Below, piece after piece: positions 10,429 to 38,930 of a stretch of 64,000 nucleotides of DNA (position 1 is the stretch's first letter; each line of letters starts with the position of its first letter). The notes below the pieces were generated by a model, which was not told the DNA's origin, ran no database searches, and was given only the letters and a program-made list of their open reading frames with translations. The DNA lies in the NCBI RefSeq assembly GCF_009931435.1, contig NZ_CP043414.1; one strand, given 5' to 3'. Source of the stretch: Escherichia coli (lineage in GTDB: Bacteria; Pseudomonadota; Gammaproteobacteria; Enterobacterales; Enterobacteriaceae). The translations under genes and the position numbers were made by a program.

Positions 10429-11322
<894 letters not shown>

Positions 11323-11392: not shown

Positions 11393-11701
11393 AGATGAAG
11401 GAAAAGCTGAAGGGCGTCAACCGAAAAATGACCAATGATGGTGAGGAAAAATCAGGGAAGATGAAAAAAACTCATCTTAATTAGAGGTAATAAAGAGATT
11501 TCTTTATAGCGCAATCAACCTCACTCGTTTTGACTGATATACAGGCAACACAACGGCACCTGTTCTCATTCGAAAAACAACGCCCTGCCACCGGATGGTG
11601 ATGCTAAAGCATCTGATTCGGCCTGCGCTCTCGTGTAGGCCGAATACAGAATCTGCGAAATCAACGGGTAACAAACAGTAGAGTCAACTCAGTGCGTACT
11701 T

Positions 11702-13261
11702 TTACTTAATATCTTTCACGCGCATACCGTTGATCTGTTCATCCGTGATGGTATTACCCGCTTTAAAGTAATCAACCACCGCGTGATAAACGTAATAACC
11801 GCCCGTCGTATTGCGCGCTTTACCCTCGGTAAACGCGGTAAAACCATCTCCACCATCAGCAAGGAAACTCTGAGTGGCAATGTGGTAAACCGTCGCATCT
11901 TCAATCGGTTTGCCATTCAGAGTCAGCGAGATAACCCGCTGACCAACCGGCTTGCTGCTGTCGTACTTCATTTCCAGGCCTTTCGATACCTGTAAAACGC
12001 CATTACTCAAACTTGCGCCGTGTTCCATCAAACCGCGTAATTGTTTACCCGTGAGTTCCATCGTCACCAGTTCGTTGGGGAACGGGAAGGTACTGATGAC
12101 GCCACCCATCGTAATTGCACCCGCCGGGATCTCATTGCGAATCCCACCAGAGTTGGTTAACGCCAACTGGGTATTTTTACCCGCCGCTACCAGTAAAGCG
12201 TCCGCCGCCAGGTTCCCCAGGGATGCCGATTCACCATAGGCACGTTTTAATTCAACTGGCGATTGCGCCACCGTTTGCTGCACGACTTCATCCAGCTTTT
12301 TATTCCAACTATCAATCACCTGTTTTGTTTGCGCATCGGGCTTCCACTCGTCGGCGTAAAGGGTTTTAAGCTCGAAGTTTTTCACCGTAAAAGTGTGCGG
12401 TTTCTCTTTGAAGTCGAGAACCAGTTTACCCACATCAATCCCTCCGCTGTCAGTGGAAAGGATGAGCGTATTGCCGACTTTAATCGGTTCCGGCGTACCC
12501 ACATGTGCATGTCCGGTGATCAAAATATCCAGCCCTTTCACCTGACTTGCCGTCTGTATATCTTTATCCAGCGCGCGACGCACATCTGTGCCTCCCATAC
12601 TGGACTGGCGGGCCGGAACACCTTCGTGAATCAGGGCGACGGTCAAATCAACCTTGCCTTTGAGTTCATCGATATAACGTTGTAACCACTTAATTTCATC
12701 ACGCGCTTCAATACCCACTCGCGTGGCAGCGGATACCGTGTCATTAAAGGCAAATACTCCGTGCAAACCAATCACACCAATTTTCACGCCGTCTTTTTCA
12801 ATAATGGTATATGGCTTATCCCAGAATGATTTACTGCTGTTCTGATAAAAAATATTACCCTGCACAATCGGGAATTTTGCCTGACTCAACTGTAATAGGG
12901 TGTTGTCCCAGCCGTGATCAAATTCATGATTCCCTATAGTGACCGCATCGAACGGCATGGTATTCATAATATCGATAATCGCCTTGCCTTTAGTCAGGCT
13001 GCTGATATACGGCCCGGTAAAATAGTCACCCGCATCAAAAAACCAGGTCGCTTTGTTTTTAGCTTTTTCTTGTTTAACAAGCGTAGTGATATTTGCCCAG
13101 CCGCCAATATCCCGTTTACCGTCAGCAATCCACGGCACTTTATAAGGCTCTACATGTGCATGGAGGTCGTTGGTATAAATAATGGTGACATCTTTGGCGC
13201 AGGCCCAAAACGGCAGTGTTAATGCGATACCCGCAGCAAGCATTTTAATTTTCATAAACAA
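11702..13261 (-). CDS. Secreted bifunctional metallophosphatase/5'-nucleotidase family protein (paralog A)
   Basis: 519 aa; N-terminal signal peptide; calcineurin-like motifs DLHAHV, GDYFTG, GNHEFD, HEG, GHAHVG; C-terminal 5'-nucleotidase-like domain (UshA/CpdB architecture). Confidence 0.8.
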
Positions 13262-13313
13262 TCCCTTCCAGTGAGATAAAGGATTGCTACATTACGTTCT
13301 GAAAGGCTTTTTT

Positions 13314-13331
13314 ATGTGAGAATACTCACAT
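13314..13331. promoter_or_regulatory. Perfect palindrome ATGTGAG-AATA-CTCACAT in divergent intergenic region
   Basis: 18-bp dyad seen between the divergently transcribed nucleotidase A and Cys-rich protein genes; candidate operator. Confidence 0.3.
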
Positions 13332-13387
13332 CCAGAGGCGATAACTGTAGGACAAAATCAACGACCTTATGAAATCGTTGGTGATAT

Positions 13388-14515
13388 ATGTCAAATCTGT
13401 TTGCGATTAATGTCTGTAAAACGTTCGGTTGTCGAAATTTGGGATTGGCCTCATCGGAAGATTACAGTTGGCCAGACTATAAACTGGGTTTTCCGGCACT
13501 GCACTGCCAGGCATGCGGAAGTTACCCCCCTTTGTTTGATGAACAACAATTTCGTGACTGGTTGTCAGTTCACATGACTGCGTGTGCCATAGAAACAGGG
13601 CATTTTTGTCCATCATGCTATTGTAAAGAAAAGATTTTTTATGGCCACAACCCGCAGGGAACACAACGCGTTCAATGCCGTTCATGCAAAAAAGTCTGGA
13701 CTCCGAAACAGCAGCCAGCAAGAGAAATTACGTATCCCCAGTCCATTGAAACCGTTCAACTGTTCATGCCCTTTCAAGGAGCCAGCGCAGTACAAAAGCT
13801 CTATGTTTTAGTCAGTCTTGACGCCACTCGTGGCAACATCCTTCATCTCTCCACGAATTATACGCAACATCAGACAGGAGACAGTCTGCGGTACAGTTAC
13901 AGAGGCAATACAGAACCAACTGAGCACCATAGCGATATTGTGCAGAGGGTAGATATGCGTGAAGCGCAATTCTTGCGCCGGAGCCAGTTCGATGAAATTC
14001 AGTATGGCAGTGCTGTGCTCAAGCGCAACGGCAAGGGAGCCATACTACGCCCGGTTATCACGGCACACGGGCATTTCAGAATACTGAAAATCCGCTTTCC
14101 ACATGTCAAAACGCATATCATTTCACACGAATGTTTTCTGAGAGGCGCAATTATTACAGCCTGGGCAGATCAGTTCCGCCAACAACAAGGCGAACTTTGG
14201 TTCGTAGAAGAAGAAATCAGCGACCGTAACGCTGATATTCCCTGGCATTTTCAGGGAACGACATACCATGGTTGGTGGCAAAATCAGTGGCAACGCTGGG
14301 GGCAGGGGAATAACAGCAAGATGGTCTGCCTGCTCACAGGAGTCTCCTTAGAAAGGGGCGCAAATGTTTCTCTGGCAACCAGTCGTTGCTTTATCACATG
14401 GCTGACAGACCAACACGACTTTACCCAAAGCGCGTTATTATCCGCAGGTCGCGTAACGAAAATGCTGACCTCACTGGCGTTAAAATACAATGAATCGCTC
14501 ACTCCATCTTGTTAG
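13388..14515 (+). CDS. Cys-rich (putative zinc-ribbon) protein of unknown function
   Basis: 375-aa ORF; N-terminal clusters C-x2-C...C-x2-C (CQACGS, CPSCYC, CRSCKK) resembling zinc-ribbon modules; no confident family assignment. Confidence 0.55.
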   Translation: MSNLFAINVCKTFGCRNLGLASSEDYSWPDYKLGFPALHCQACGSYPPLFDEQQFRDWLSVHMTACAIETGHFCPSCYCKEKIFYGHNPQGTQRVQCRSCKKVWTPKQQPAREITYPQSIETVQLFMPFQGASAVQKLYVLVSLDATRGNILHLSTNYTQHQTGDSLRYSYRGNTEPTEHHSDIVQRVDMREAQFLRRSQFDEIQYGSAVLKRNGKGAILRPVITAHGHFRILKIRFPHVKTHIISHECFLRGAIITAWADQFRQQQGELWFVEEEISDRNADIPWHFQGTTYHGWWQNQWQRWGQGNNSKMVCLLTGVSLERGANVSLATSRCFITWLTDQHDFTQSALLSAGRVTKMLTSLALKYNESLTPSC

Positions 14516-14744
14516 TCAATACACTCGACAAACGACCATAAATTAATGGGATCACTATTTCTCATTTAATTAAATATATGAATGTATGACTGAAAAATAT
14601 AATCACAGTCAATGTTTAATTAATAACATTATTTGTTACTAAGATCACATAATACTTTCCTGACCTATGCTCTTATAAAAATAAGACACGGTGTTCCTTT
14701 TATTTAAATAATTCAACCAATGTAACAACCCCTATCAAGGAGGG

Positions 14745-16298
14745 ATGATGAGAACTGTATTTACGACTTTATCAGTCATATTCAGCGTGATGTTTTCTCA
14801 CAGTATACTAGCTCAGGACGTTACTATTTATTATACGAATGATATTCACGCACATGTCAATCCGGCAAAAATTCCCGCTGTTGATAAGAACAGACTTGTA
14901 GGTGGTATGGCTAATATTGCAGGCATCGTTAATGAAGCGAAGAAAAAAAACAAAGATGTCTTTTTCTTTGATGCAGGCGACTATTTTACCGGTCCGTATA
15001 TCAGTACCCTGACCAAAGGTGAAGCTATTATTGATATCATGAACACCATGCCCTTTGATGCGGTGTCCGTTGGTAATCACGAGTTCGATCACGGCGTGCC
15101 CAATATGGTATCTCAGTTATCAAAAGCAAAATTCCCCATTCTGCTGGGAAATATTTACTACACCGATACAAATAGACCAGTTTGGGATCATCCGTGGACC
15201 ATTATCGAAAAAGATGGTTTAAAGATTGGTGTGATTGGATTGCATGGTGCATTCGCTTTCTATGATACAGTCGCGGCAAAAGCACGTGAAGGCGTAGAAG
15301 CCAGAGACGAAATTAAATATTTAAATAAAGCACTTGCAGAATTAAAAGGTAAAGTCGACATTACCGTTTTGCTAATTCACGAAGGTGTTCCGGCGCGTCA
15401 ATCAAGCTTTGGTAGTAAAGATGTGGAGCGGCTACTACAGGCAGATATTGAGACAGCTAAAAAAGTGAATGGTGTTGATGTCTTAATTACCGGTCACGCA
15501 CATGTCGGAACACCGCAACCAATAAAAGTTAATAACACATTAATTGTATCTACCGATGCATACGGCACCGACATCGGAAAACTTGTGCTTGATTACAATC
15601 CGAAAACAAAGAAAATTGATAGTTATAATGGTGAGTTAATCACCATCTTTGCAGATCAATTTAAACCTGACACCATCGTTCAAAATACTATCGATAAATG
15701 GAGCGTAAAGCTTAACAAAATCACACAGGAAGTTGTCGGCCATTCTCCCGTAGTTTTAACACGTGAGTATGGCAGTTCTTCTTCTACCGGTAACCTTATT
15801 CTGGATGCAATGATGGAAAAAGCACCTGATGCCATTGCCGGATTTCAAAATAGCGGTGGGATGCGAGCTGATTTTCCTAAAGGTGATATCACACTGGGAG
15901 ATGTTATTAGCACATTCCCCTTTAATAATGACCTCATCGAGATGGATTTGACGGGCCGCGATCTCAAATCATTGATGACGCATGCAACCAATCTAACTAA
16001 CGGTGTGTTACAGGTTTCAAAAAGCGTTGCGGTTGTCTATGACAGCAAAAAACCACTCAACCAGCGGTTAATCTCTTTCACCATTAACGGCAAACCCGTG
16101 GAAGATAATCAAACATATCGTATTGCCACGCACTCCTTTTGTGCCAGTGGTGGTGACGGTTTTGAAGCATTTTTGAATGGAAAAAATGTGAAGACGATAC
16201 CGGGAACAACCTCGGCGGAATCTATCATCGATTATTTCAAAAATCATAAACCTGTCACCCCAGACTTAACTAAACGAGTCATGGACGTCGCCAAATAA
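14745..16298 (+). CDS. Secreted metallophosphatase/5'-nucleotidase family protein (paralog B)
   Basis: 517 aa; signal peptide; same metallophosphatase motif set as paralog A but most divergent of the three. Confidence 0.8.
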   Translation: MMRTVFTTLSVIFSVMFSHSILAQDVTIYYTNDIHAHVNPAKIPAVDKNRLVGGMANIAGIVNEAKKKNKDVFFFDAGDYFTGPYISTLTKGEAIIDIMNTMPFDAVSVGNHEFDHGVPNMVSQLSKAKFPILLGNIYYTDTNRPVWDHPWTIIEKDGLKIGVIGLHGAFAFYDTVAAKAREGVEARDEIKYLNKALAELKGKVDITVLLIHEGVPARQSSFGSKDVERLLQADIETAKKVNGVDVLITGHAHVGTPQPIKVNNTLIVSTDAYGTDIGKLVLDYNPKTKKIDSYNGELITIFADQFKPDTIVQNTIDKWSVKLNKITQEVVGHSPVVLTREYGSSSSTGNLILDAMMEKAPDAIAGFQNSGGMRADFPKGDITLGDVISTFPFNNDLIEMDLTGRDLKSLMTHATNLTNGVLQVSKSVAVVYDSKKPLNQRLISFTINGKPVEDNQTYRIATHSFCASGGDGFEAFLNGKNVKTIPGTTSAESIIDYFKNHKPVTPDLTKRVMDVAK

Positions 16299-16332
16299 AA
16301 TATCATTTATCAGTCTATTTATTTAACAAGGA

Positions 16333-17958
16333 ATGCGAATGAAAACAGTGCAGCGTACTTTACTTGCCGCAACATTGCTGACTATTTTTTCGGTTTCAGT
16401 CATGGCGCAGGATGTCACGATTATTTATACAAATGATCTTCACGCTCATGTGGATTCTTATAAAGTGCCGTATATCGCAGACGGAAAACGCGACATTGGC
16501 GGCTTTGCCAATATATCTACTTTAGTAAAACAAGAGAAAGCGAAAAATAAAGCCACCTTTTATTTTGATGCTGGAGACTATTTCACCGGCCCTTATATCA
16601 GCAGTCTGACAAAGGGCGAAGCAATAATTGACATTATGAATACCATGCCTTTTGACGCAGTATCAATCGGTAATCATGAGTTTGACCATGGCTGGGATAA
16701 TGCCCTGCGACAATTAAGCAAAGCGAATTTTCCTGTTTTATTGGGCAATGTTTATCATAAAGAGAGTGAGAAACCCTTCTGGAACAAGCCCTACACCATC
16801 CTGGAAAAAGATGGCATCAAGATTGGTATTATTGGGCTACACGGCGTATTTGCATTTAATGATACGGTCTCGGAGCTCTCTCTCCAGGGACTCGATAATG
16901 ACAATAATAACCGCTTTGATAAATCTTCCGAGACCCTTAAGAATCAGGGGATTGAAGCACGTGATGAAGTGAAGTATTTGCAACATTATATCGACGAGTT
17001 ACGTGATAAGGTTGACCTCACTGTGGCGCTGGTTCATGAAGGCGTTCCGGCGCGTCAGTCCAGCATTGGCAATACAGATGTTAGACGCGCTCTTGATAAA
17101 GATATTCAAACCGCTAGCAAGGTGAAAGGATTGGATATTCTGATTACCGGGCATGCCCACGTCGGAACGCCAGAACCAATCAAAGTCGGCAACACCTTAA
17201 TCCTTTCAACTGATAGTGGCGGTATCGATATTGGTAAATTAGTCCTTGATGTCAACCCTACAGCTCGTACCCATAAAATGAAGAGCTTTGAGCTGAAAAC
17301 AGTTTATGCCGATGAATGGATACCCGATCCAACGACACAAAAAGTTATCAATGGCTGGAATAAAAAACTGGCGGATATTGTACGCCAACCAGTGGGTGAA
17401 TCATCGATTGCATTAACTCGCGCCTATGGTGAGTCATCGCAACTAGGCAACCTGTTTACCGATGCAATGCTTGTCGCTGCTCCGACTGCACAGATTGCAT
17501 TGATAAACTCCGGCAGCTTACGTGCGGATATAAATGCAGGCACGATTACCTTTGGCGACATTACCAGTACATTCCCCTTCAAGAATGAACTTACTGAAAT
17601 GGATCTCAGCGGTAAGGATCTGCGTAACCTACTGGAACACGGGGCATCGCTTACCAATGGCATCCTGCAAATGTCAAAAGGCGCAGAAATGCGCTATACC
17701 CCGCAGAAACCAGTAGGTCAGCGCATAGTATCTTTTAAAATTAATAGTGAAGAGATCGTTGATACGAATATTTACCATGTTGCAACAACGACTTTCCTTG
17801 CACTGGGGGGCGATGGTTTTCTGGCATTCAAAGAAGGGAAAAATGTTCAGGTCCGCGCCGGAAATAACATGTCCGATGTCGTGATCGATTATTTGAAGAA
17901 AGGCCACAAGATTACGCCTGCACAGGTAAATGAAATGCGGGTGGACGTTAGCAAATAA
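16333..17958 (+). CDS. Secreted metallophosphatase/5'-nucleotidase family protein (paralog C)
   Basis: 541 aa; closely related to paralog A over most of its length, with a 20-aa insertion (ELSLQGLDNDNNNRFDKSSE...). Confidence 0.8.
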   Translation: MRMKTVQRTLLAATLLTIFSVSVMAQDVTIIYTNDLHAHVDSYKVPYIADGKRDIGGFANISTLVKQEKAKNKATFYFDAGDYFTGPYISSLTKGEAIIDIMNTMPFDAVSIGNHEFDHGWDNALRQLSKANFPVLLGNVYHKESEKPFWNKPYTILEKDGIKIGIIGLHGVFAFNDTVSELSLQGLDNDNNNRFDKSSETLKNQGIEARDEVKYLQHYIDELRDKVDLTVALVHEGVPARQSSIGNTDVRRALDKDIQTASKVKGLDILITGHAHVGTPEPIKVGNTLILSTDSGGIDIGKLVLDVNPTARTHKMKSFELKTVYADEWIPDPTTQKVINGWNKKLADIVRQPVGESSIALTRAYGESSQLGNLFTDAMLVAAPTAQIALINSGSLRADINAGTITFGDITSTFPFKNELTEMDLSGKDLRNLLEHGASLTNGILQMSKGAEMRYTPQKPVGQRIVSFKINSEEIVDTNIYHVATTTFLALGGDGFLAFKEGKNVQVRAGNNMSDVVIDYLKKGHKITPAQVNEMRVDVSK

Positions 17959-17970
17959 TAAAAAAATTAT

Positions 17971-18007
17971 AATGCCATTCATTCACTGAATGGCATTATT
18001 TTTCTCT
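17971..18007 (+). terminator. Hairpin plus T-run between nucleotidase C and the tsx-like gene
   Basis: AATGCCATTCA-TTCAC-TGAATGGCATT followed by ATTTTTCTC. Confidence 0.45.
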
Positions 18008-18036
18008 AAATCAACAATAGATAATGAGATATATTT

Positions 18037-18897
18037 ATGTGTATAAAAAAGCACGGGATAGCTTTATCGATTCTATTAATACCTTGCATTGGAAACGCTC
18101 AGGAAATTAAAAGTGAGGAAGGCTGGTTACATCAAAGCTTGAATGTCATTGGTCGCACAGACTCTCGCTTTGGCCCAAGGCTGACTAACGACCTCTACCC
18201 TGAATATACTGTAGCAGGAAGAAAAGACTGGTTTGATTTTTATGGTTATGTTGATCTACCAAAATTCTTTGGCGTCGGCAGTCACTATGATGTTGGGATC
18301 TGGGATGAGGGCTCACCACTATTTACGGAAATAGAACCTCGGTTTTCCATTGACAAATTGACCGGATTAAATCTTGCGTTCGGCCCTTTTAAAGAATGGT
18401 TCATTGCAAACAACTATGTCTATGATATGGGTGACAACCAGTCATCCCGGCAAAGTACATGGTATATGGGGCTTGGTACAGATATCGACACGGGTCTACC
18501 AATTAAGCTTTCTGCCAATATATACGCCAAGTATCAGTGGCAAAACTATGGTGCCGCTAATGAAAATGAATGGGACGGATATCGATTCAAAATAAAATAT
18601 AGCATTCCTCTTACCCATTTATTCGGAGGGCGATTGGTATACAATAGTTTTACTAACTTTGATTTTGGCTCCGATCTTGCGGACAAATCACACAATAATA
18701 AACGAACCAGTAATGCTATTGCTTCAAGCCATATCCTTTCCCTGCTATATGAACACTGGAAATTTGCATTTACACTACGTTATTTTCACAACGGTGGACA
18801 ATGGAATGCTGGGGAGAAAGTTAACTTCGGAGATGGTCCATTTGAATTAAAAAACACAGGATGGGGAACCTATACTACTATTGGTTATCAATTTTAA
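18037..18897 (+). CDS. Tsx-family nucleoside-specific outer-membrane channel paralog
   Basis: 286 aa; signal peptide; long collinear similarity to E. coli Tsx ([72 protein letters not shown]-terminal GY-F). Confidence 0.85.
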
Positions 18898-19078
18898 ATC
18901 AGGTGATGTTTTAGATATTTTTACTTAATGCCATTTTGTAATTGTCATAAATAACTTCACCATTCACACTGTGAATTCATCGCTCAACACAAAAGCCCCC
19001 TTATTACCGGGGCACTGACCAAAGGCAAAATGACAATCAATCACCACCTCCGCAGGAGGTGGTTTAGAGGTGACAACA

Positions 19079-19104
19079 AAAGCTGGCAACTGCCAGCTTT
19101 TGTT
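19079..19104. terminator. Symmetric, bidirectional-type hairpin downstream of metL
   Basis: AAAAGCTGGCA-ACT-GCCAGCTTTT with U-tracts on both strands, immediately 3' of the metL stop. Confidence 0.55.
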
Positions 19105-19113
19105 CAATAATCA

Positions 19114-21546
19114 CTACAACAACTGCGCCAGACGGTTAATATCCGACTGAATCGCCCCGGCGGTGACGTCGCGCCCTGCGCCTGGCCCACGGATCACCAG
19201 CGGGTTGTCGCGATACCAGCGGCTTTCGATGGCAAAGACGTTATCGCACGGTAGTAGTGATGCCAGCGGATGGTCTTCTCGCACCGCTTCCACGCCTACT
19301 CGCGCTTTGCCGTTAGCATCGAAACGCGCCACGTAGCGCAACACCAGCCCCATTTCACGGGCCGCTTCCAACCGTTGTACCATCTGCTCATTAAGTTCAT
19401 CGCCATTTTCAAAGAAATGGTCGATGCTGCCACCTTCGCAATGGGTTGGCACCAGTGATTCAACACGCACCTGGTCCGGTTCAATGTTGTAACCCGCTTC
19501 ACGCGCCAGAATCACCAGCTTGCGCATCACGTCTTTGCCGGAGAGGTCATCACGCGGGTCAGGTTCAGTTAAGCCCTGCTGCCACGCCTGATCCACCAGC
19601 TCGGTAAACGGCACGCTACCGTCGAATTGCAGGAACAGCCAGGAGAGCGTGCCGGAGAAGATCCCGCTGATCGACAAAATAGTGTCGCCGCTGTCGATCA
19701 GATCGCGCACGGTATGGTTGATCGGCAAACCTGCGCCGACGGTGGCGTTGTATAGCCAGTGACGCCCGGTTTTTTCGAACGCGTCGTGGATCTGTCGATA
19801 TTTATTGCTGTCGCTGGCTCCCGCCAGTTTGTTGGCACTGATGACGTGGAAACCGTGGCTGGCGAAATCGAGATACTGATCAGCAAGCTGCTGGCTGGCA
19901 GTAACGTCCAGCACAACTAAATCATCATACGGATGGGCACGCATCCACAGGAACAGCGACTCTTCATCCTGTTCGACGGCTTCATCATTAAAGAAGGCTA
20001 GCGCACGGCTGGCGTCCAGCCCGTCATAGCTCAACAGGCTGCGACGGCTGTCCACCACGCCTGCCAGCACAAATTCAAAGCCGGTGCGCGCCGAGAGTGT
20101 ACTCTGCTCACGGGCGAACAGTTCCAGCCAGCGGGAACCGATATTGCCCTTACCGAACAATACCAGGCCGATGCGTTTTTCTGCGCGGAAGACGGACTGA
20201 TGCAGCCCCTGAATCAGGCTTTCGGTCGGGCCGGTGCGCAGTACTGCCACCAGGCTGATGCCGTCATCGGACTGCCAGGTAAACTCGACCGGCTGGCCTT
20301 TCAGTTGCTGCCAGAAGCGGTGGCAATGCAGCGGGTTACGGGTGACGCCCGCCCCAACCATCGCCACCAGCGCCAGCCCCTGACGCAGACGCAGTTCGCC
20401 GGGTAATCCTGCTTCGTCGAGGATTTTCAGCGCACTGTCGGCCACTTCCGAGGTGTAGCAAAATTGCAGCAACTGGCGATCGTTATGCACGCCAACTGCC
20501 AGTGGGCGCACCTGAGCACGTTTCAGGATTTGGTCGATCTCTTTATGCGCCAGTTTAAAATCCTGACTGGCGGGCACCTGAAACTCAATCAAACAGACAT
20601 CATCGTGGCTGGTGACAATACGCGCGCCAGTACCTGAGGCCAGCACGCGTTCAATGCGCGTGGAACCTTGATCCGGCGTGTAGCTACAGCGCAGCTGCAG
20701 GTCGATTTCGCTGCCAGAAACTGGCTGTAAAGTACGGGCGTGAAGAACGGGGGCCGCCAGACGCGCCAGTTCGCTGGCTTCATCCAGACGCAGCAACGGC
20801 AGCAGGCAGGCGTCTTTCACTTTACGCGGGTCGGCGCTATATACCCCGGCGACATCGCTCCAGATGGTTACGCGGGAAACTCCCGCCAGCGCACCGATTT
20901 GTGTCGCGGAATAGTCGGAACCGTTACGCCCCAGCAGCACCGTTTCACCGGCGTTGTTACGGCTGATAAACCCGGTCACCACCAGACGTTTGCCCGGATG
21001 TTGTACCAGTAGCTGTTGCAGCAACGGGTAAGAAAGCCCTTCATCAACCTGCGGCTGCGCGGCGCGTTCAGCGCGTAAAAACTCGCGGGCATCAAGCCAG
21101 GCCGCTGGCAGCCCTTGTTGATTAAGTACCGCAGACATCAGGCGCGCCGACCACACTTCACCGTGGCCCACCACTTCCGCATACACCGCATCGTTAATAC
21201 CGCTGTCGAGCAGCGCCGCCAGGCGTTCCAGATCGCTGACAAAAGCGCTAATGAGGCTATCGGCTTCTTCAGCGGGTAGCAGGCCGCTAATCAGATCGCA
21301 CTGATAGCGACGCAGCGTTTGTTGAACCTGATGCGCAGAGAGACGATCGGTCTGGCTTAGTTTCAACCAGTTAATCAACTGGTTAGTGGTGCTACCGGCG
21401 GCGGAAACCACCATCATATCGTCAGGCTGAGAGTACTCCGCCATAATGCCCGCGACACGCAAATAACACTTCACATCAGCCAGACTACTGCCACCAAATT
21501 TATGCAGTTGACGACCTTTCGCCCCTGCCTGCGCAATCACACTCAT
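19114..21546 (-). CDS. metL: Bifunctional aspartokinase II / homoserine dehydrogenase II
   Basis: 810-aa ORF; start overlaps metB stop region (operon metBL). Confidence 0.95.
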   Translation of the reverse strand: MSVIAQAGAKGRQLHKFGGSSLADVKCYLRVAGIMAEYSQPDDMMVVSAAGSTTNQLINWLKLSQTDRLSAHQVQQTLRRYQCDLISGLLPAEEADSLISAFVSDLERLAALLDSGINDAVYAEVVGHGEVWSARLMSAVLNQQGLPAAWLDAREFLRAERAAQPQVDEGLSYPLLQQLLVQHPGKRLVVTGFISRNNAGETVLLGRNGSDYSATQIGALAGVSRVTIWSDVAGVYSADPRKVKDACLLPLLRLDEASELARLAAPVLHARTLQPVSGSEIDLQLRCSYTPDQGSTRIERVLASGTGARIVTSHDDVCLIEFQVPASQDFKLAHKEIDQILKRAQVRPLAVGVHNDRQLLQFCYTSEVADSALKILDEAGLPGELRLRQGLALVAMVGAGVTRNPLHCHRFWQQLKGQPVEFTWQSDDGISLVAVLRTGPTESLIQGLHQSVFRAEKRIGLVLFGKGNIGSRWLELFAREQSTLSARTGFEFVLAGVVDSRRSLLSYDGLDASRALAFFNDEAVEQDEESLFLWMRAHPYDDLVVLDVTASQQLADQYLDFASHGFHVISANKLAGASDSNKYRQIHDAFEKTGRHWLYNATVGAGLPINHTVRDLIDSGDTILSISGIFSGTLSWLFLQFDGSVPFTELVDQAWQQGLTEPDPRDDLSGKDVMRKLVILAREAGYNIEPDQVRVESLVPTHCEGGSIDHFFENGDELNEQMVQRLEAAREMGLVLRYVARFDANGKARVGVEAVREDHPLASLLPCDNVFAIESRWYRDNPLVIRGPGAGRDVTAGAIQSDINRLAQLL

Positions 21547-23974: not shown

Positions 23975-24298
23975 ATGATGAAAAAAATAATTCCCGCCGT
24001 AGTCTGTTTGTTGCTTTGTAGTTGCACGACCTTTCCGCAAGCTGTCGCTCCGGCAGGGAAAGATTACGAAAGCCCGCTCCCCGCAAGGACTGACGCCAGA
24101 TACTTTCTGTCCATGGCTGCTTTTCGCATCTTACGTCTTAACCCTGCCTTGAATACCTTATCATTCGTTAAAATATTAATAGCGATGTGCCGTATCCCTG
24201 AAAATAATTCTGCGGCGTTTCCTCTTCGTATTTTGCAGTCGTCTTCATTCATTACCACGTCCAGACGCCAGTGCAGCTTATTCTCCACGTGCCAGTGA
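23975..24298 (+). other. ORF with lipoprotein-like N-terminus running into the antisense strand of the H-repeat element; probably a truncated or chimeric gene
   Basis: MMKKIIPAVVCLLLCSCTTF lipobox-like start 3 nt after yiiX stop; downstream part is antisense to the transposase pseudogene. Confidence 0.25.
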
Positions 24299-25199
24299 TT
24301 TCGGATCGCTGTGGCGAACTTTTCTGCGGTTAAATCAGCAGAACTGATATAATATCTGACCGTCATTTCTGGCTCTTTCTTTTGTTCTGCTATTATTGAC
24401 CGAAAGGAGAATGCCACGCATAATTTCTTCAGTCCTTTCCATTCAAACGTGAAATCAATAAGTTCATCACGGACATCGCAAACAATATGAAGACGGATTT
24501 CTTCTCTGCCGTGACTCTTTTCACTCATTGCGTAACTGTCATGCTCTGGATTATTTAATTCTTTCAGCGGAAATTTTTCCTCGAAGGCTTTATTTAGCCG
24601 CCCCTGATTTCCTTTTACAGAGAATAAATAATCACCTCCCTGTTTTTGTATCTTCTCTGCAATATCTTTCTGGCAACCCATCGCATCAGTTGTGATAATT
24701 TTTCCTTTATATCCAGCATGTTAAGAAGTTCAGGGATAGCAGTAATCTCATTGGATTTCTCATCCGTCTTGATCTGTCCGATGACCAGACTGTGCATTGT
24801 TGAGAACGCACTAATGACATGAATCGCTCCCCTGCGGCGACTCTTGTCATAAGAATGCCGGAGTGTTTTTCCATCAATTGCGATGACGTCTTTATCATCT
24901 GAAGTATGGCAATCTCGCATCCAGTTAATAAAGCACTCGTGAAATTTTGAAGGACTGATACAGGATACAACTCTGGCGATGGTATCGTGAACAGGAATAC
25001 CATTTTCAAAATCACCATATTGTTTTAAAAAATCGCGATGTGCTTCCCCAAAATCCTCTATATGTTCCCAGCCTTCTGCACCAGAAATAACGGCACAAAT
25101 AGTCAACAGTAGAATATCCGACAATTTATGTTTCACTTTTGCAGGATTGTCTGCAATCGGGAATAACAGAAATATGTTCCATCAATTTTTTAAGTTCCA
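24064..25199 (-). pseudogene. ISAs1-family (H-repeat-associated) transposase, disrupted by frameshifts
   Basis: Three pieces ([11 protein letters not shown]... from 25199; 173-aa ORF 24615-25136; 205-aa ORF 24064-24681) are jointly collinear with the ~378-aa E. coli H-rpt protein (YhhI-like) as recalled. Confidence 0.8.
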
Positions 25200-25350
25200 T
25201 TCTTTTCTCCTTAATTATGTAAGGAGTATTTGATCATGTATAAGCAATAAAAAAACAGCTTCAGGCAATGAGGAATATCTCAATTTTTAAACATAAAATG
25301 CGAATTGTTTAGTACAAAAAAGCAGCGTTAAGTGATCTTTCCCTGTCGGC

Positions 25351-25665
25351 ATGTTGACCACTGACGAATGGGGTAGTTACGCTAGAGAGTTACCAAAGGA
25401 GAAGCATCTGACTGGTAAGATTTTTACTCAGCATATTGAGCGTAACAATCTGACCCTGAGAACCCGAATCAAACGTCTGGCCCGCAGAACCATCTGTTTC
25501 TCGCGTTCTGTAGAACTTCATGAAAAAGTCATCGGTGCTTTTATCGAAAATATATGTTCTACTAATTGGAGTCATCACCCTTCTGATGAGCTTTCCTTGG
25601 ATGATTACCAGACTGAATACATAGCCAAAGATTTTTACCTCATTCTGCTTTTTTTTCTCAAATGA
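25351..25665 (+). pseudogene. IS1-family InsB-like transposase C-terminal fragment
   Basis: TDEWGSY...FTQHIERNNLTLRTRIKRLARRTICFSRSVELHEKVIG parallels the IS1 InsB C-terminus (TDGWPLY...[38 protein letters not shown]); the N-terminal catalytic part is missing. Confidence 0.6.
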
Positions 25666-25958
25666 CATATATTATATTTTATATCATATTCATAGGCATA
25701 TGACATTCCCCCGCCCCCCATTATGTCATTGTGGGTTGATGTTGGGCTTTCATAAAAAAATACATCTTTTTTTGAACTAGCATTAATTATATTTACTTTA
25801 TATATTAAAATATTTTCTCCATCTGGAAATATTTTAGCCACACAATATAAAGCAGCTAAATCCGAATTACTTAAAAATATATTGTCATCACTCATAACTC
25901 CAGCCATTAAATGACTGGAGACTAAAGCAAGGAAATAACAACATTGTATTACCTTCAT
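25635..25958 (-). CDS. Candidate Rhs immunity protein
   Basis: ATG 2 nt after the rhs stop (TAA-a-ATG coupling); 107 aa from MKVIQCCYFLALVSSHLMAG (hydrophobic, signal-like N-terminus); strongly AT-rich. Confidence 0.5.
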   Translation of the reverse strand: MKVIQCCYFLALVSSHLMAGVMSDDNIFLSNSDLAALYCVAKIFPDGENILIYKVNIINASSKKDVFFYESPTSTHNDIMGGGGMSYAYEYDIKYNICHLRKKSRMR

Positions 25959-25959
25959 T

Positions 25960-28900
25960 TTAATTACTCCCTTGCCTGATAATTGTAACTCCATTCCCTT
26001 TAGCTTTGGGATTATATTTTAGATAGGTGTTATTTGGTGTTCCCAAGTAACTACTGTATTCTTTTTTTCCCATTCCATTCATATAAGAATTCGTTAAATC
26101 TTTGCTTGAAAAATTTAGACTATCATAAACATCATTTTCTTTTGTTACTTTATTTCCTTTATCGTCAGAGTAAAAACCGTGAGTGTGATAATCGCCTACT
26201 CTCTCTGAACCTTCAGGGCATTTTATATTTCGCAAGTCTACACTATCATTATCATTTGAACTTATCGGATTCATGGGGAAATATTCACCTTGCTTCTTAC
26301 ATATTAGTCCACCATATTCTTTATTCTCGTTAATTGATTCTCCATTACACATTGCCAATGCAAATATTCCAATATCATCTATATTTTTTGATTTAAATTC
26401 ATATAATCCTAATGGATCCATGCCATTCACCGGGCTCAGCGGATATGTATACAGGTTCCATCCCCCCTTCAGCCCAATCGGATCCTGAGTGATATACCGC
26501 CCCTGCAGCGGGTCATAATAGCGGTGGCGGTTGTAATACAGGCCGGACTCCTCATCATACTGCTGACCCGGCAGGCGGATGAGCTGCTGCAGCTGGTGCG
26601 GGTTCTCTTCATTCAGCAGGTTGCCCCATTCATCGTATTCTGCGCACCATTCTGTTGCCCCTTCCGTGCTGATAAGCACCAGCGGCAGGCCGCGATGGTC
26701 GCAGTGGTACAGGTGGATTTTTCGCGCCGGCGTGTACACCGGTTCCATCTGGTTTTGCATCTGCGCCACCGTCAGGCCGCACGATGCCAGCCAGCGGCGG
26801 CTTTCCTCACTCACCCGGTCAGCCAGGATTTCACTTTCCAGCCGGTCGAGCATCTGCACCAGCACCGGCGGGAACACCACACTGCCACCGTCTTCGCCGC
26901 CGGACTGCTGAAGCGCATCCGCCAGGCTGCGGCGCTGCGTTTTCGCCAGCTCACCGGTGGCGGTTTCGACCCTGATGAGTGGCGTGAAGCTCCCCGGCTG
27001 ATAAACCGTCTGGATGCGGGTTCTGTCGTTCTGTATCGTGGTCAGCCGGTCGCCGTCCCAGCCGTACCAGGTCACTTCCGGTTTCCGTGACAGCGACATC
27101 CAGCCCGTCAGGTCCCGTTCACGCCGCCACACCCGTTTTGCCACCCTGCGGCCCAGCGGGTCGTAAAGATAGCGACTTTCGACCAGCGGCTCTGCATATT
27201 GTGTCCGCGTGTAGTGCACCAGCCGGTGCCGGCTGTCGTAATGGTACCGGTGAGTCCGCTCATCATCCGTGCGGATAACCCCTTCCGGGATGAGGTCGGT
27301 TTTCTCTGTCAGCCTGCCGTGACGGTCATACCGGTAAAGATAGTGCGCGTCACGGGCGATACGGTTATCCGGCCACATGCTGAGGGTGCTGTCCGGGTGC
27401 AGCTCCGGGTCGGGCAGGCGGTTACCTGCCGGGTCCGTGGCATACGGGATGCGGATATCCAGATTCGCTGCGGTGGTGTGAACGCCGGTCAGCCTGCCGG
27501 TGGTGCTGTAGCTGTAACTCCGGGTCTGGCGCGGGCTGCTGATGCGAATGAGTTCGCCGTTGTCGTTCCAGGTGTAATCGCGGTCATACTGCAGGCTGTT
27601 CAGGTGCTGGCTCTGTAACTGCCCGGCAGGGGTGTAAGCGGTGGTGAGTTCATAACGGCCGAAGCTGCGCAGCGTTTCCCGGTGCAGGCGGTCGCGGGTG
27701 AAATCCACCAGCGGTGTGTCGCCGAGTTTCATCCCTGCCAGGTAACCACTGCCATAAGTCAGCCATTCCACGGCGGGCAGGCTGTCCGGTATACAGCGGT
27801 TCGCCAGCCCCTGCGCGTTGTACGCATGTCTGGTTTCATGCTGCCAGAGCAGTGCTTCCGTCTGCGGGTGATGCACCGTCTGGCGCTCACCGGTCAGGCG
27901 GCCTTTCTCATCATACCCGTAATGCACCGTCACCCGGTGCCCTTCGCTGAGATGGCTGATGCCTGTCAGCCAGCCGCGTTCGTCGTACCGCCACTGTTCT
28001 GCGGTTTCACCATTCACCGTTCGCTGCGTGATGCGGTCTGCTTCGTCATAGTGCCAGTGGGTGACCAGTCCCTCATCCTCGCTGCGGATAAGTTTGCCGG
28101 TCAGGTCGTGGTGATAACGCTGTGTGCGGCCGTCAAAGCCGGTTTCCTGTATCAGCCGGTCGAGTACATCGTAACGGAAGGTGGTGTGGCTGCCGTTTTC
28201 GTTTGTCAGGCGGATGACCCGTCCTGCAGCATCGTATTCCATACTGCGGGTCAGCCCGCCCTGCGTGGTACGGACGGCCTTTCCCCACGCATCGTACTGT
28301 GCCCCGTATCTGCTGCCGTCCGGGGCAATGACGGTGGTCAGGTCACCGGCGGCGTTGTATTCATACCGCGTTTCATGGCCCTGCGTGTCTTTCACCGCAA
28401 TTAACTGTCCATGGCTGTCGTATGCGCGGCACTGGCTCAGGCCTTCCTCGCGGTGCACCGCCGTCATCTGCCCGAAGCGGTCATGGTCATAACGGGTCTG
28501 GTAGCCGGAACAGTCGGTGAAGGTCAGCAACTGACCGTAACGGCTCCACGTCATGGTTTTCCGGCTGCCGGTGGCATCTTCCGTTGCGCAGGGGAAGTCA
28601 CTGTGTGGATTATCATAACGGTAGCGGATGATATCGCCGTCAGGGGCAGTTTCCTGAATCAGACGGCCGGATTCATCATATTCCCGGCGTATTTCCAGCC
28701 CGTCAGGCCCGGTGGCTGACGTTAACTGGTTGTGGTGGTTATAGTAAAACGCCGATGCCCTGCCATCCGGCGTGGTGATGCGCGTGATGAGTCCCGTCAC
28801 CACATCCGGGCTGTATTCTGTTGTCCGGCCTGCGGCATCCGTCTGTGTCCTGAGCCTGCCCACCGCGTCAAACTGACTCTGCGTGACGCTGCCGTCCGCG

Positions 28901-30144
28901 TGTTCCTTTTTCACCACCCGCTTCAGCCCGCCTTCGCCTGCGGTATGCAGGACTTCATGGCGGTCCAGGCTGTCGGTGATGGTGATGCGGTCTTTCTCAT
29001 ACTGATACGTGTAGCTTAAGCCTGCCGGGTTTAGCTGTTCTGTCACCCGCCCGTCGCTGTCGTAACGGTAACGGATTTCCGGCCGGCCCGTGTGACGGTG
29101 CGCCACCATCCGGCCCCGGTATTTATCATCGTAAGTAAAGCTGCGCACCTGTGTATTGCTGCGGTCATACACCGCCGCCAGTTCGCCGCGCGGCGTCCAG
29201 CCATAGCGCACCAGCGGCGTGGCTGGCAGGTTGTCCGGGTATTCCGGGTCGTGCGTCAGCCACACGGCAGACAGACGGATACCGTTGTCCCGGCCATATT
29301 CCGTGTAGTCCGGCAGGGTATCAGGAAAAGCGGACTGTTCCGCCCCGCCGGAAGAGGCCTGCTGCCGGGCCTCTTCTGCCCGCTGCGCCTGCGTGGTCAG
29401 TGCCAGCCGGAAGTGACGCCCGGCACCATCCGTCACGCCGGTGATTTCGCCGCTGAATTCACCGGCGGCTTCGCGGTGAAACGTCTGTGTGCGCCCGAAG
29501 CGGTCCACCAGCCCGGTCAGTACCCGGTACGGCGGCAGCGGCGCGGGCAGCACCTCATCCGCCTCCGGCACCCGCTCACACCAGCCGAGTACCCACCACG
29601 GCCCCTGCGGACTGTTCGTCGCCAGATAACGATGCGGACTCAGGCGAAGCTCTTCCGGCAGCGCCTGCCAGAGTGCGGCCAGCCGGTGACCTTCATCCAG
29701 TCTCAGGACGCCGCCGCGCACCAGCCAGAGTGACTCGCTGCGGCTGTAACCGTCCTCACCGGGAAACAGGTGCTCAAAATACAGGCTTCTGCCGCCGTTA
29801 TCACTGAGTATCAGTGTGTTATCGCGCAGCTGTAAGCGGATATCCGCAGGCATTTTCCAGCCGGGGCCGAGAATACCCACCGGCGCGGGCGTTTTTGTCC
29901 GGTAACTGCTGTACGTGCGGGAGAGGATGAACGGCAGCGGTCCGGGCAGGGCAATGTCTGTCTCGCCGGGAAGGACCTTTGCACCGAGCAGGGGATTGAC
30001 CGGATGGCCGGACGTCACCCCGCCGGGGCACACCGAACAGGCCACGCCGGTGGGGGCACCAATACGTACCCCGGCTGAACCCTGAACAATGCTACCGCCA
30101 TACTGCGTCATGTCGCCCTGACGCGCCGCCGGTTTTCCGCTCAT
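25960..30144 (-). CDS. Rhs-family protein with variable C-terminal toxin domain
   Basis: 1394 aa; N-terminus [23 protein letters not shown] typical of E. coli RhsA/B/C-class; YD repeats; DPLGL boundary motif then a 147-aa AT-rich C-terminal tip. Confidence 0.9.
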
Positions 30145-30262
30145 CGTAAAATCCTTTTAAAATAAATAAGAACCAGAAGCCTAGCGCCAGTCAACAACAG
30201 GAAATGATAATGAGTTAACACCCCGGAATTTTTCAGAATTTATAAAAGGCAAATTACAGGCA

Positions 30263-32917: not shown

Positions 32918-33072
32918 TGCGCAAACGATGCGAGGCGGATCGAAAAATTCAATATTCATCACACTTTTCATGAAAATTCTGTAACCGTTTTCACGCGCTA
33001 TCTGCTAAAAATGTTGCCGATGTGAAGTAAACATGGAAGTAGTACGCCTGCCGTGCCGGGCGAGGAGTGAGT

Positions 33073-34098
33073 GTGAAAGCGAAGAAGCAGGAAACTGCCG
33101 CGACCATGAAAGACGTTGCCCTGAAGGCAAAAGTCTCTACAGCGACCGTCTCCCGAGCATTAATGAATCCCGATAAAGTCTCCCAGGCCACCCGTAATCG
33201 GGTTGAAAAAGCGGCCCGGGAAGTAGGTTATTTGCCGCAGCCTATGGGGCGCAACGTCAAGCGTAATGAATCCCGTACCATTCTGGTGATTGTCCCGGAT
33301 ATCTGCGATCCCTTCTTTAGCGAAATTATTCGCGGTATCGAAGTTACGGCGGCAAATCACGGATATCTGGTGCTGATTGGCGACTGTGCGCATCAAAATC
33401 AGCAGGAAAAAACCTTTATCGATTTGATTATCACCAAGCAAATTGATGGCATGTTGCTGCTGGGTTCAAGGCTGCCGTTTGATGCCAGCATTGAGGAACA
33501 GCGTAATCTGCCGCCGATGGTGATGGCGAACGAATTTGCGCCGGAACTGGAGCTGCCTACAGTTCATATCGACAATTTGACCGCGGCATTTGATGCAGTA
33601 AATTATTTATATGAGCAAGGTCATAAACGGATTGGCTGTATAGCCGGTCCCGAAGAGATGCCGCTGTGTCACTACCGCCTGCAAGGCTACGTTCAGGCGC
33701 TGCGTCGCTGCGGCATTATGGTTGATCCGCAATACATCGCCCGGGGCGACTTCTCCTTTGAAGCCGGAAGCAACGCGATGCAACAGCTGCTTGCTCTTCC
33801 GCAACCGCCTACTGCTGTCTTCTGCCATAGCGATGTAATGGCGCTCGGCGCACTTTCTCAGGCAAAACGCCAGGGGCTGAAAGTCCCGGATGATCTGTCC
33901 ATAATCGGTTTTGATAACATCGACCTGACGCAATTTTGTGATCCGCCGCTGACAACCATCGCGCAGCCGCGTTACGAAATCGGTCGGGAAGCTATGCTGT
34001 TATTGCTTGATCAAATGCAGGGGCAACACGTTGGCAGTGGCTCTCGTTTAATGGACTGCGAACTTATCATCCGGGGATCAACGCGCGCGTTACCTTAA
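33073..34098 (+). CDS. cytR: LacI-family transcriptional repressor CytR
   Basis: GTG start, 341 aa (KAKKQETAATMKDVALKAKVSTATVSRAL HTH). Confidence 0.88.
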   Translation: MKAKKQETAATMKDVALKAKVSTATVSRALMNPDKVSQATRNRVEKAAREVGYLPQPMGRNVKRNESRTILVIVPDICDPFFSEIIRGIEVTAANHGYLVLIGDCAHQNQQEKTFIDLIITKQIDGMLLLGSRLPFDASIEEQRNLPPMVMANEFAPELELPTVHIDNLTAAFDAVNYLYEQGHKRIGCIAGPEEMPLCHYRLQGYVQALRRCGIMVDPQYIARGDFSFEAGSNAMQQLLALPQPPTAVFCHSDVMALGALSQAKRQGLKVPDDLSIIGFDNIDLTQFCDPPLTTIAQPRYEIGREAMLLLLDQMQGQHVGSGSRLMDCELIIRGSTRALP

Positions 34099-38672: not shown

Positions 38673-38930
38673 GTACCTGCCATGCGTTAAAAGGGGAATT
38701 AAATTCCCCTTTTTTATATGCAAAATATTCATAAAGACTATCGTTTGTTTTTATTTAATTCATTTTAAATATCAATAGTTCACATCTGACAATATAAATT
38801 AATTATCGATAAATCATTTCATAAAAATATGCAGCATTAAAAATTAATGCTATATGGTAAATTAACTATTCTGGGAATAGGGATATGAATCATCGTTAGT
38901 AGCGAACGTATTATATAATAAGGGATTGAT

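Follow-up and report, generated by a model that had tools for sequence, protein, structure and literature searches.

Genomic context of the AT-rich spacer

The window analyzed here, a 64,000-nucleotide stretch of Escherichia coli DNA, covers the frwB-frvX segment of the chromosome and contains a spacer of very low GC content (14516-14744) directly upstream of the nucleotidase gene nucB. The first-pass annotation had taken this composition as the mark of a horizontally acquired promoter region bound by H-NS. The locus raises the question of whether the spacer is indeed a silenced promoter, and which cue would open it, or whether its AT-richness simply belongs to the DNA with which it arrived.

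The spacer lies in an accessory island. Homology to the metL-metF region of K-12 stops at 11469 and restarts at 19115, and the island between these points is missing from K-12. Its GC content is about 43%, compared with 54-58% in the flanks. The island, its genes and its neighbors are as follows.

10429-11319, minus strand: metF, neighbor of the island
11470-19114, no strand assigned: whole accessory island, 7.6 kb, in the metF-metL interval, relative to the empty site of K-12
11702-13255, minus strand: nucA, UshA-family nucleotidase (PGAP coordinates; the ORF list extends it to 13261)
13388-14515, plus strand: cyt, annotated as 'cytoplasmic protein', without a Pfam family
14479-19112, plus strand: nested module (AT-rich leader, nucB, nucC and tsx-like), 4.6 kb, ends approximate
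14748-16298, plus strand: nucB, UshA-family metallophosphatase/5'-nucleotidase with Pfam Metallophos and 5_nucleotid_C
16339-17958, plus strand: nucC, second UshA-family nucleotidase, by Pfam
17969-17999, plus strand: strong terminator-like hairpin in the nucC/tsx-like interval, 13-bp stem and T run
18037-18897, plus strand: tsx-like, nucleoside-specific outer-membrane channel (Pfam Channel_Tsx, 4.9e-70)
19114-21546, minus strand: metL, neighbor of the island

The spacer is bounded by the stop codon of the 375-aa ORF at 13388-14515 and by the first ATG of nucB. The N-terminus of NucB is a signal-peptide-like sequence, and all of its NCBIfam matches of the UshA type were under the cut-off. The tsx-like product matched NCBIfam PRK15106 with 491.8 bits, which is over the cut-off of that model. 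The AlphaFold model of the cyt product had a pLDDT of 38.5 and was unusable.

A smaller, two-gene form of the island, consisting of cyt and nucA only, occupies the same site in other genera and in many E. coli strains. When the window was compared with such islands (loci L013-L018), they aligned up to approximately 14478 and then again from 19113. Because the alignment breaks and resumes at these points, nucB-nucC-tsx together with the AT-rich spacer is a nested insertion into an older nucA/cyt island, at the junction of cyt and metL, with the spacer as its 5' leader. The C-terminus of the cyt product differs beyond ...SLA between the two-gene and the full island, and in the two-gene form the 3' end of cyt overlaps the 3' end of metL at a convergent junction. 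The coding GC content of the module is 42.0%, versus 47.8% for nucA and cyt. This insertion history, as read from the alignments, is a new but small finding.

Among 5426 complete E. coli genomes, the full five-gene island was present in 658 (about 12%) and the two-gene island in 1181 (about 22%), and the remaining genomes (about 66%) had an empty metF/metL site. Carriers of the full island include CFT073, Nissle 1917, LF82 and SMS-3-5. The absence of the island from K-12, its distribution (658/5426) and the nested insertion support the horizontal acquisition that the first-pass annotation had proposed. A plasmid search gave no match to the module, and none of 16 related loci of other genera contained a nucleotide homolog of the leader. 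Outside E. coli, the NucB proteins nearest in sequence share only 76% identity and belong to a differently arranged cluster, cyt(-) / nucB tsx nucC. One locus (L031), in which nucB is joined to high-GC DNA exactly at the start codon, was judged to be a chimeric assembly and was set aside.

Base composition and allelic variation of the leader

The strong AT-richness noted at first sight is confirmed, since the spacer has a GC content of 28.4% over its 229 bp (whole window, 51%), and both of the AT runs quoted in the first-pass annotation were found in place. A sliding-window calculation put the spacer in the lowest 0.6% of 229-bp windows within the 64 kb, and windows with a GC content equal to or below that of the spacer form three clusters (14477-14796, 25604-26163 and 38609-39017). 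We also compared the spacer with 38 intergenic regions, each annotated and 50 bp or longer, from the collinear genome NZ_CP074749.1, whose identity is 99% to the window and 100% over the spacer. The mean GC content of these regions was 43.1% (sd 7.3%), and the spacer ranked second from the bottom; only the 78-bp spacer between nucC and tsx in this cassette was lower. Among the regions longer than 100 bp it was the lowest, and the rraA-hyp region, with 28.7%, was approximately tied with it. The TA-step frequency of the leader, measured on the CFT073 allele, was 0.12, compared with 0.03-0.08 in genes, and the leader is the AT-rich and TA-step-rich extreme of the module, the short nucC-tsx spacer excepted.

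Relative to its own genes, the spacer is unexceptional. Its GC content lies 13.6 points below that of the cassette coding sequences (28.4% vs 42.0%; offset -13.6), and the mean intergenic GC content lies 11.9 points below that of the core coding sequences (43.1% vs 55.0%; offset -11.9). Since these offsets are similar, the AT-richness of the spacer mostly reflects the low GC content of the cassette as a whole, to which the normal intergenic bias is added.

Within E. coli there are effectively two leader alleles available for comparison. The F-type allele, which is that of the window, differs from the B2-type allele at 25 of the 229 positions (10.9%), a divergence close to that of nucB (8%) and nucC (16%) at 4-fold degenerate sites. 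The longest run of invariant positions, 42 bp at 14608-14649, is not significant (P 0.12-0.23). Because the divergence is near the synonymous rate and the longest block is insignificant, most of the leader is not visibly constrained.

Occupancy of the island genes by H-NS and StpA

ChIP-seq data for H-NS, StpA and RNA polymerase (RNAP) have been published for CFT073 cultured in glucose-containing MOPS rich defined medium (Hustmyer et al. 2022, PMC9765446). CFT073 carries the island with the same gene order and the same gene lengths (861, 1620, 1551, 1125 and 1554 nt after metL), and because order and lengths match, c4894-c4898 are the island genes. Their wild-type H-NS occupancies in Data set S1E (PMC9765446), tabulated per gene and for the B2 allele (about 89% identical, leader GC 28.9%) rather than for the allele of the window, are as follows.

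c4894, tsx-like: 0.504
c4895, nucC: 0.260
c4896, nucB: 0.425
c4897, cyt: 0.114
c4898, nucA: 0.117

All five genes belong to the 'H-NS bound gene' set, and their StpA values are almost equal to those of H-NS. Deletion of hns leaves c4894-c4896 in the bound class, and anti-StpA signal is retained at c4894 and c4896 in the hns stpA double deletion, a class of persisting signal that the authors equate with the highest affinity. Occupancy of 0.43-0.50 is comparable to that of fimB (0.45) and above that of papI, adiY and cadC in the table portion examined. Across the five island genes, H-NS occupancy was negatively correlated with gene GC content (Spearman -0.9, n=5), and between cyt and nucB, that is, across the leader, it steps from 0.11 to 0.43. 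H-NS binding, which the first-pass annotation had predicted and proposed to check against ChIP data, is therefore supported at the gene level, as nucB, nucC and tsx-like of CFT073 are listed as bound. Because the table is per gene, we infer the binding of H-NS on the spacer itself. The H-NS high-affinity motif TCGATAAATT has one weak match (8/10) in the leader, and its enrichment in the module is only about 2-fold.

The source also reports background or low RNAP at 676 of 795 H-NS-bound CFT073 genes, a figure that we took as a prior only. The H-NS binding of these genes is already public in that data set, in which the locus is undiscussed. Literature searches by the CFT073 locus tags and for transcription-start maps of B2 strains gave nothing usable on the expression of these genes or the start of their transcript.

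These observations bear on the simplest alternative, namely that the spacer is a compositional by-product. According to this explanation, the spacer would have no silencing role, H-NS would be there incidentally, and the genes would be expressed mainly by read-through from a CRP-dependent cyt promoter. The explanation fits the near-equality of the two GC offsets and the approximately neutral rate at which the spacer has evolved, and it draws further support from the scans described below, in which no terminator was called between cyt and nucB and no strong promoter was found in the spacer. However, the step in H-NS occupancy from cyt to nucB speaks against uniform transcription of the two genes as one unit. 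Moreover, neither the CRP-like site nor the tandem octamers of the leader are likely to have arisen by chance, and the hexamers of a candidate promoter and the Shine-Dalgarno sequence lie within invariant blocks. We consider it unlikely that the spacer is a by-product of this kind.

Candidate promoters and the start region of nucB

The elements of the leader that could serve in transcription and translation initiation are the following.

14598-14603, plus strand: candidate for an alternative promoter, with a perfect TATAAT as -10-like hexamer, a poor -35 and a start near 14610
14683-14712, plus strand: candidate sigma-70 promoter AAGACA-18-AATAAT, 9/12 match in the consensus scan
14737-14750, plus strand: Shine-Dalgarno sequence AAGGAGGG and start of nucB, ATG at 14745 (ORF list) or 14748 (PGAP)

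No strong sigma-70 promoter was found on the coding strand of the leader, where the best score was average for any 280-bp window. Weak promoter-like sites are numerous in the spacer, with 6 on the plus strand and 15 on the minus strand versus a mean of 1.8 per 280 bp elsewhere, an excess that AT-rich DNA would be expected to show. The top score on the plus strand (7.8 bits) belongs to the TATAAT at 14598-14603, and this hexamer is kept in both alleles. AAGACA-18-AATAAT has a modest score (5.8 bits), with a predicted start near A14719 and a predicted 5' UTR of 29 nt. Its hexamers fall in the invariant blocks 14678-14690 and 14697-14717, and the variable positions 14691, 14695 and 14696 are in its spacer. 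On the basis of the sequence comparison, AAGACA-18-AATAAT is the best-conserved candidate promoter of the leader. A third candidate start, besides those near 14610 and 14719, is located near 14678.

CRP-like sites in the island

Two sites resembling the CRP consensus TGTGA-N6-TCACA stand out in the island.

13315-13330, no strand assigned: CRP core TGTGAGAATACTCACA without mismatch, in the divergent promoter region of nucA and cyt
14634-14649, no strand assigned: CRP-like site TGTTACTAAGATCACA, TGTTAC(T/C)AAGATCACA, 9/10 core positions, in the leader

Sites with at most one mismatch to the consensus number six in the 64 kb; all of them are intergenic, two are in the island, and the others include sites in the spacers upstream of rhaB and rhaT. 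The site at 13315-13330 is the sole perfect CRP match in the 64 kb (shuffle P approximately 0.0002). Its half-sites are conserved and its spacer is variable across Citrobacter, Enterobacter, Phytobacter, Kluyvera and other loci, and its distance to the conserved TAAnnT -10 element of nucA is that of a class II site. The older part of the island is thus predicted to be CRP-wired.

The leader site at 14634-14649 occurred with P of approximately 0.007 in composition-matched shuffles of the leader. Its cores are invariant in all alleles examined, one base of its spacer varies between strains, and one half-site has T where the contacted G is expected. The center of the site is located at approximately -77.5 relative to the start at 14719 and at approximately -36.5 or -44 to -47 relative to the nearer -10 candidates, and all of these positions are non-canonical. 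The CRP-like site of the leader is a new, small finding.

The leader can also be compared with the class II-type CRP promoter of nucA-type genes in Enterobacteriaceae. Both belong to the same gene family and island, and both have a CTTTC...TGA...-10-like stretch after the CRP core. The nucA-type promoter, however, is divergent from cyt and about 130 bp long, whereas the nucB leader is in tandem with cyt and 229 bp long. The leader is also much more AT-rich, one of its CRP half-sites is imperfect, and the distance from its CRP core to its -10-like element is about 4 bp less.

CytR-type octamers and a DeoR-like palindrome

Two further motifs point to the regulators of nucleoside metabolism.

14613-14628, no strand assigned: 16-bp near-palindrome TGTTTAATTAATAACA with DeoR-operator-like ends, also a 7/10 CRP-like core
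14710-14726, plus strand: tandem CytR-type octamers AATTCAAC-c-AATGTAAC, direct repeat with a 1-bp spacer; consensus AATGYAAC

The tandem octamers match the degenerate consensus GTTGCATT/AATGYAAC at 15 of 16 positions and have the format of an operator: a direct repeat with a 1-bp spacer is known from two natural operators, those of cytR and cdd, as well as from SELEX sites (PMC3454398). They are the only match with two or fewer mismatches in the window (shuffle P approximately 0.0005). Both octamers are invariant, the intervening base being C or A depending on the allele, and they overlap the candidate promoter AAGACA-18-AATAAT in its -10/+1 region.

CytR operators are usually flanked by two CRP sites. 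Beside the octamers of the leader no CRP-like core of at least 7/10 was found, the nearest one ending 60 bp upstream, and no CRP match with three or fewer mismatches is adjacent to them at the standard 6-bp spacing. A CRP site within about 5 bp has been described as a requirement of CytR operators (PMC3454398), and because this feature is missing here, the leader is not filed under the CytR regulon. An additional CRP site considered for a CytR-type tandem arrangement, at 14591-14607, was rejected, as its spacing is 7 bp and it is not conserved in the B2 allele. When the natural cytR and cdd operators were used as controls, their fit to the simple octamer consensus was poor, and agreement or disagreement with that consensus therefore proves little. 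The tandem octamers are, again, a new and small finding.

For DeoR, the reference was the 16-bp palindrome TGTTAGAA.TTCTAACA, with the operators read in K-12. Compared with deoO1 as read in K-12, TGTTAGAATTCTAACA, the leader palindrome matches at 11 of 16 positions with the ends kept, which is insignificant in shuffles (P=0.26). The palindrome is invariant in all alleles. TTGCA/TGCAA cores are absent from the leader, and the internal spacers of related clusters in other genera showed no CytR/DeoR-type pattern.

One could read these motifs as primarily a promoter of the nucleoside regulon, like those of tsx, deo and cdd, with CytR and perhaps DeoR as repressors and CRP as activator. The cue would then be cytidine/adenosine or deoxyribose-5-phosphate and not relief from H-NS, although such a promoter is compatible with the H-NS-coated promoter region that we favor. 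The functions of the genes suit the regulon, as the cassette codes for nucleotidases and a Tsx paralog. The octamers agree with the CytR consensus and form a direct repeat with 1 bp between the copies, the leader has a CRP-like site at 14634-14649, and TGTTTAATTAATAACA has the TGTT...AACA ends and the 16-bp frame of the K-12 deo operators. On the other hand, the one CRP site that is convincing is 60 bp away from the octamers; the TTGCA/TGCAA cores are missing and the DeoR-like match is not significant (P=0.26); the pattern does not recur in the internal spacers of the other-genus clusters; and the natural cytR/cdd controls fit the simple consensus poorly. We hold this reading to be improbable, on a par with the compositional by-product.

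A comparison with known promoters under CRP and CytR (and DeoR) control, such as tsx P2, deoP2, cdd, udp, nupG and cytR, shows both kinds of features. The nucleoside theme and the CRP-like site are shared with them, the octamer direct repeat with its 1-bp spacer is shared with the cdd and cytR operators, and the 16-bp TGTT...AACA palindrome is shared with the deo operators. Unlike in those promoters, the one CRP site of the leader is apart from the octamers and in non-canonical geometry to any candidate start, and the octamers lie over a candidate -10/+1 region instead of between CRP sites.

Possible remnants and RNA features in the leader

A weak hairpin is found near the 5' end of the leader.

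14536-14566, plus strand: weak hairpin CCAT-AAATTA-ATGG (14536-14549) with a T-rich tail (to about 14566)

A terminator scan of the cyt-nucB interval called no terminator on the plus strand, this hairpin included. Nevertheless, a 24-nt stretch of the hairpin matches the post-nucC hairpin of another locus (L008) at 87.5% (E=0.029), and the hairpin resembles the tail of the window's own nucC terminator, AATGGCATTATTTTTCTC. Hairpins homologous to that at 17969-17999 are also located 3' of nucC in other genera. We tentatively suggest that the 14536-14566 hairpin is possibly a degenerate remnant of the terminator that follows nucleotidase genes.

Such a remnant would fit a third explanation, in which the spacer is decayed DNA, composed of a terminator remnant and a degenerate nucA-type class II CRP promoter, in front of a near-dead cassette heading for loss. 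The stretch after the CRP core of the leader, TAATACTTTCCTGACCTATGCT, resembles the nucA-type promoter TAAAAAAGCCTTTCAGAACGTAATGT and is about 4 bp shorter, so the class II geometry would be broken in the leader. Frameshifted, IS1-interrupted or truncated cassette genes, annotated in some genomes, point in the same direction. Against this, most of the 658 genomes, like the window, have intact cassette ORFs, and the amino-acid differences between the F and B2 forms are few (13, 14 and 6). So few changes imply purifying selection and hence expression somewhere, and in our judgment decay is a rather poor account of the locus, less probable than either of the explanations considered above.

It is very improbable that the spacer encodes a small peptide, an sRNA or a structured leader RNA of the riboswitch or attenuator kind: the spacer is long (229 bp) and an 18-codon ORF (ATG at 14587) is retained in both alleles, but this ORF is without a Shine-Dalgarno sequence and shows synonymous and non-synonymous changes mixed, no part of the island matched an Rfam family at E<=1, and the leader RNA folds no better than shuffled sequences (z-score -0.84; 39 of 200 shuffles fold as well).

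Proposed control of the cassette

In our view the spacer is probably, though by no means certainly, the H-NS-coated promoter region of an acquired cassette with CRP input. The 229-bp AT-rich leader came in with the acquired 4.6-kb nucB-nucC-tsx-like cassette, whose genes code for a pair of periplasmic nucleotidases of the UshA type and for a nucleoside pore of the Tsx type. Because leader and cassette both far exceed the core genome of E. coli in AT content, H-NS and StpA coat the cassette genes, as the gene-level data from CFT073 show, and would also coat the leader, a likely nucleation or high-occupancy point. Under such a coat, transcription of the cassette in glucose-rich laboratory medium should be low, as the weak promoter or promoters of the leader would be occluded and read-through from cyt would be blocked.

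Under carbon limitation, cAMP-CRP at 14634-14649 would then act as an activator and/or a counter-silencer. We regard cAMP-CRP as the most likely cue because a conserved CRP-like site is present in the leader and a perfect, conserved one in the nucA/cyt region; the first-pass annotation had predicted silencing in the laboratory and induction by a specific cue, but had not named CRP or CytR as candidates. CytR binding to the tandem octamers might add a cytidine/nucleoside input; we treat this as a lead only, and a real role of CytR at the leader seems unlikely to us. The predicted gene functions fit the scavenging of nucleotides and nucleosides. A more elaborate scheme would make the cassette a B2/F, ExPEC-enriched operon for scavenging extracellular nucleotides, with a CRP-independent CytR operator over the promoter and a distal CRP site that counter-silences H-NS/StpA. 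This scheme as a whole is a long shot, distinctly less probable than a CytR role by itself.

Relation to known systems

The preferred reading, an H-NS-coated promoter region with CRP input, places the locus among cases of xenogeneic silencing by H-NS/StpA. It resembles them in its lineage-specific low-GC DNA, in its AT-rich and TA-step-rich spacer, and in the H-NS and StpA ChIP signal on the cassette genes, whose levels are like those of fimB, pap and cadC in the table portion examined. Many weak promoter-like sites on both strands are also a feature of H-NS-silenced loci. In contrast to such loci, the counter-silencer is here only proposed (CRP). Of the four features that define an H-NS-silenced acquired promoter, three are present, namely AT-richness, lineage-specificity and gene-level H-NS occupancy, and the fourth, low transcription that is relieved by loss of H-NS/StpA, is predicted for the cassette. 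For an accessory operon it is no surprise to have an AT-rich promoter region to which H-NS binds, and the locus is an ordinary example of a well-known kind.

If the proposed control is true, the locus would offer a compact, testable case of a foreign low-GC cassette that is coated by H-NS/StpA and usable only via global regulators of the host, CRP and perhaps CytR. If a CRP-independent CytR operator is true, it would represent a new CytR architecture and an example of a xenogeneic operon joining a host regulon. Extraintestinal and probiotic B2 strains (CFT073, Nissle 1917 and LF82) are among the carriers, and with such strains included in a carriage of about 12%, the control of the cassette could bear on nucleotide and nucleoside scavenging in the gut and the urinary tract. 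Some genomes, as mentioned above, are annotated with frameshifted, IS1-interrupted or truncated genes of the cassette.

Finally, the cassette proteins share the domain architectures of K-12 UshA and Tsx (Metallophos with 5_nucleotid_C, and Channel_Tsx, respectively). However, they are paralogs and not orthologs of the K-12 proteins, the score against the NCBIfam UshA equivalog being 165 versus a cut-off of 600, and, unlike the K-12 genes, the cassette genes are clustered and accessory, occurring in only about 12% of complete genomes.

Composition of the island at the metL-metF junction

Among the complete E. coli genomes, the metL-metF junction (11470-19114 in the window) was found in three states. 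The site is empty in K-12 and O157:H7, while a two-gene island consisting of cyt and nucA is carried by 1181 genomes and the five-gene island by 658. When the five-gene form was compared with the two-gene form of E. coli, the cyt proteins showed only about 73% identity but nucA showed about 97%, which makes the island a mosaic. In further genomes, the island has taken up an IS1 element, or its nucB carries a frameshift.

Features of the five-gene island
13315-13330: perfect CRP core TGTGAGAATACTCACA, a sequence match in the nucA/cyt divergent spacer
13359-13380: inverted repeat CAACGACC-ttatga-AATCGTTG, directly 5' of the cyt start codon, conserved across genera
13388-14515: cyt, 375-aa 'cytoplasmic protein'
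17969-17999: strong terminator-like hairpin with a 13-bp stem and a T run, between nucC and the tsx-like gene
18037-18897: tsx-like ORF of 286 aa, intact in the window and matching Tsx models over its full length

The nucA/cyt divergent spacer

The CRP core between nucA and cyt is the sole perfect match within the 64 kb, and it lies at a class II distance from the conserved -10 element of nucA (TAAnnT). Its half-sites are kept in Citrobacter, Enterobacter, Phytobacter, Kluyvera and other loci, with a variable spacer between them. The allele in the window is also identical at 14 of 16 positions to the K-12 deoO2 operator, TGTTAGAATACTAACA. The inverted repeat in front of cyt was scored as terminator-like on the - strand, and on the + strand the pairing in some variants is possible only as G-U. 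This repeat could serve as an operator, or it could form a hairpin in the 5' UTR.

The cyt protein

The cyt gene is widespread in Enterobacteriaceae, and a UshA-type nucleotidase gene was divergent from it in all of the other-genus loci that we examined. When the protein was searched against Pfam, zero families scored above threshold. Two CxxC...CxxC clusters are present in it. Zinc ribbons of InsA/IS1595-type transposases were matched weakly but repeatedly, by 15 of 20 homologs with a best E of 1.9e-4, and the NCBIfam IS1 transposase N-terminus was matched with an E of 4e-4. The AlphaFold model, with a pLDDT of 38.5, was too poor for use. We suggest that cyt could act as a DNA-binding regulator or could derive from a transposase.

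The nucB-nucC-tsx-like module

Hairpins homologous to that at 17969-17999 are located 3' of nucC in other genera. With a terminator-like hairpin in this position, only about 35 bp ahead of the tsx-like start, the tsx-like gene may need either read-through or a promoter that was not recognised. In the annotation of the nearly identical genome NZ_CP074749.1, the tsx-like gene is a C-terminally incomplete pseudogene. A related locus from a Logan contig (L031, ERR5355665, positions 1-1607) carries nucB-nucC with 97% identity, and high-GC DNA with MFS and TetR-like genes joins nucB precisely at the start codon. A chimeric assembly, or else an engineered construct, is the most likely source of this join.

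Other segments of the window

A second AT-rich spacer precedes a 208-aa hypothetical gene located between rraA and zapB, and the lowest-GC 229-bp window of the 64 kb (22.7%) falls inside it. In addition, a 6.2-kb segment at 24056-30253 stands in place of about 550 bp in strain R32_14_1F, in the region of a TIGR02117-family gene.

Features of the two segments
~38673-39020 (R32 coordinates 33025-33372): AT-rich spacer of 348 bp, 28.7% GC, 5' of the 208-aa hypothetical gene
24064-25136: DDE_Tnp_1 transposase in two fragments, within the 6.2-kb segment
25960-30144, - strand: RHS-repeat protein of 1394 aa, encoded at about 60-64% GC; DUF4329 forms its C-terminal tip

The low-GC tail of the 6.2-kb segment, where GC falls to 26% near 25.7 kb, contains a 119-aa ORF without family. 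The segment resembles a typical Rhs toxin element, complete with its AT-rich tip and what may be an immunity gene.
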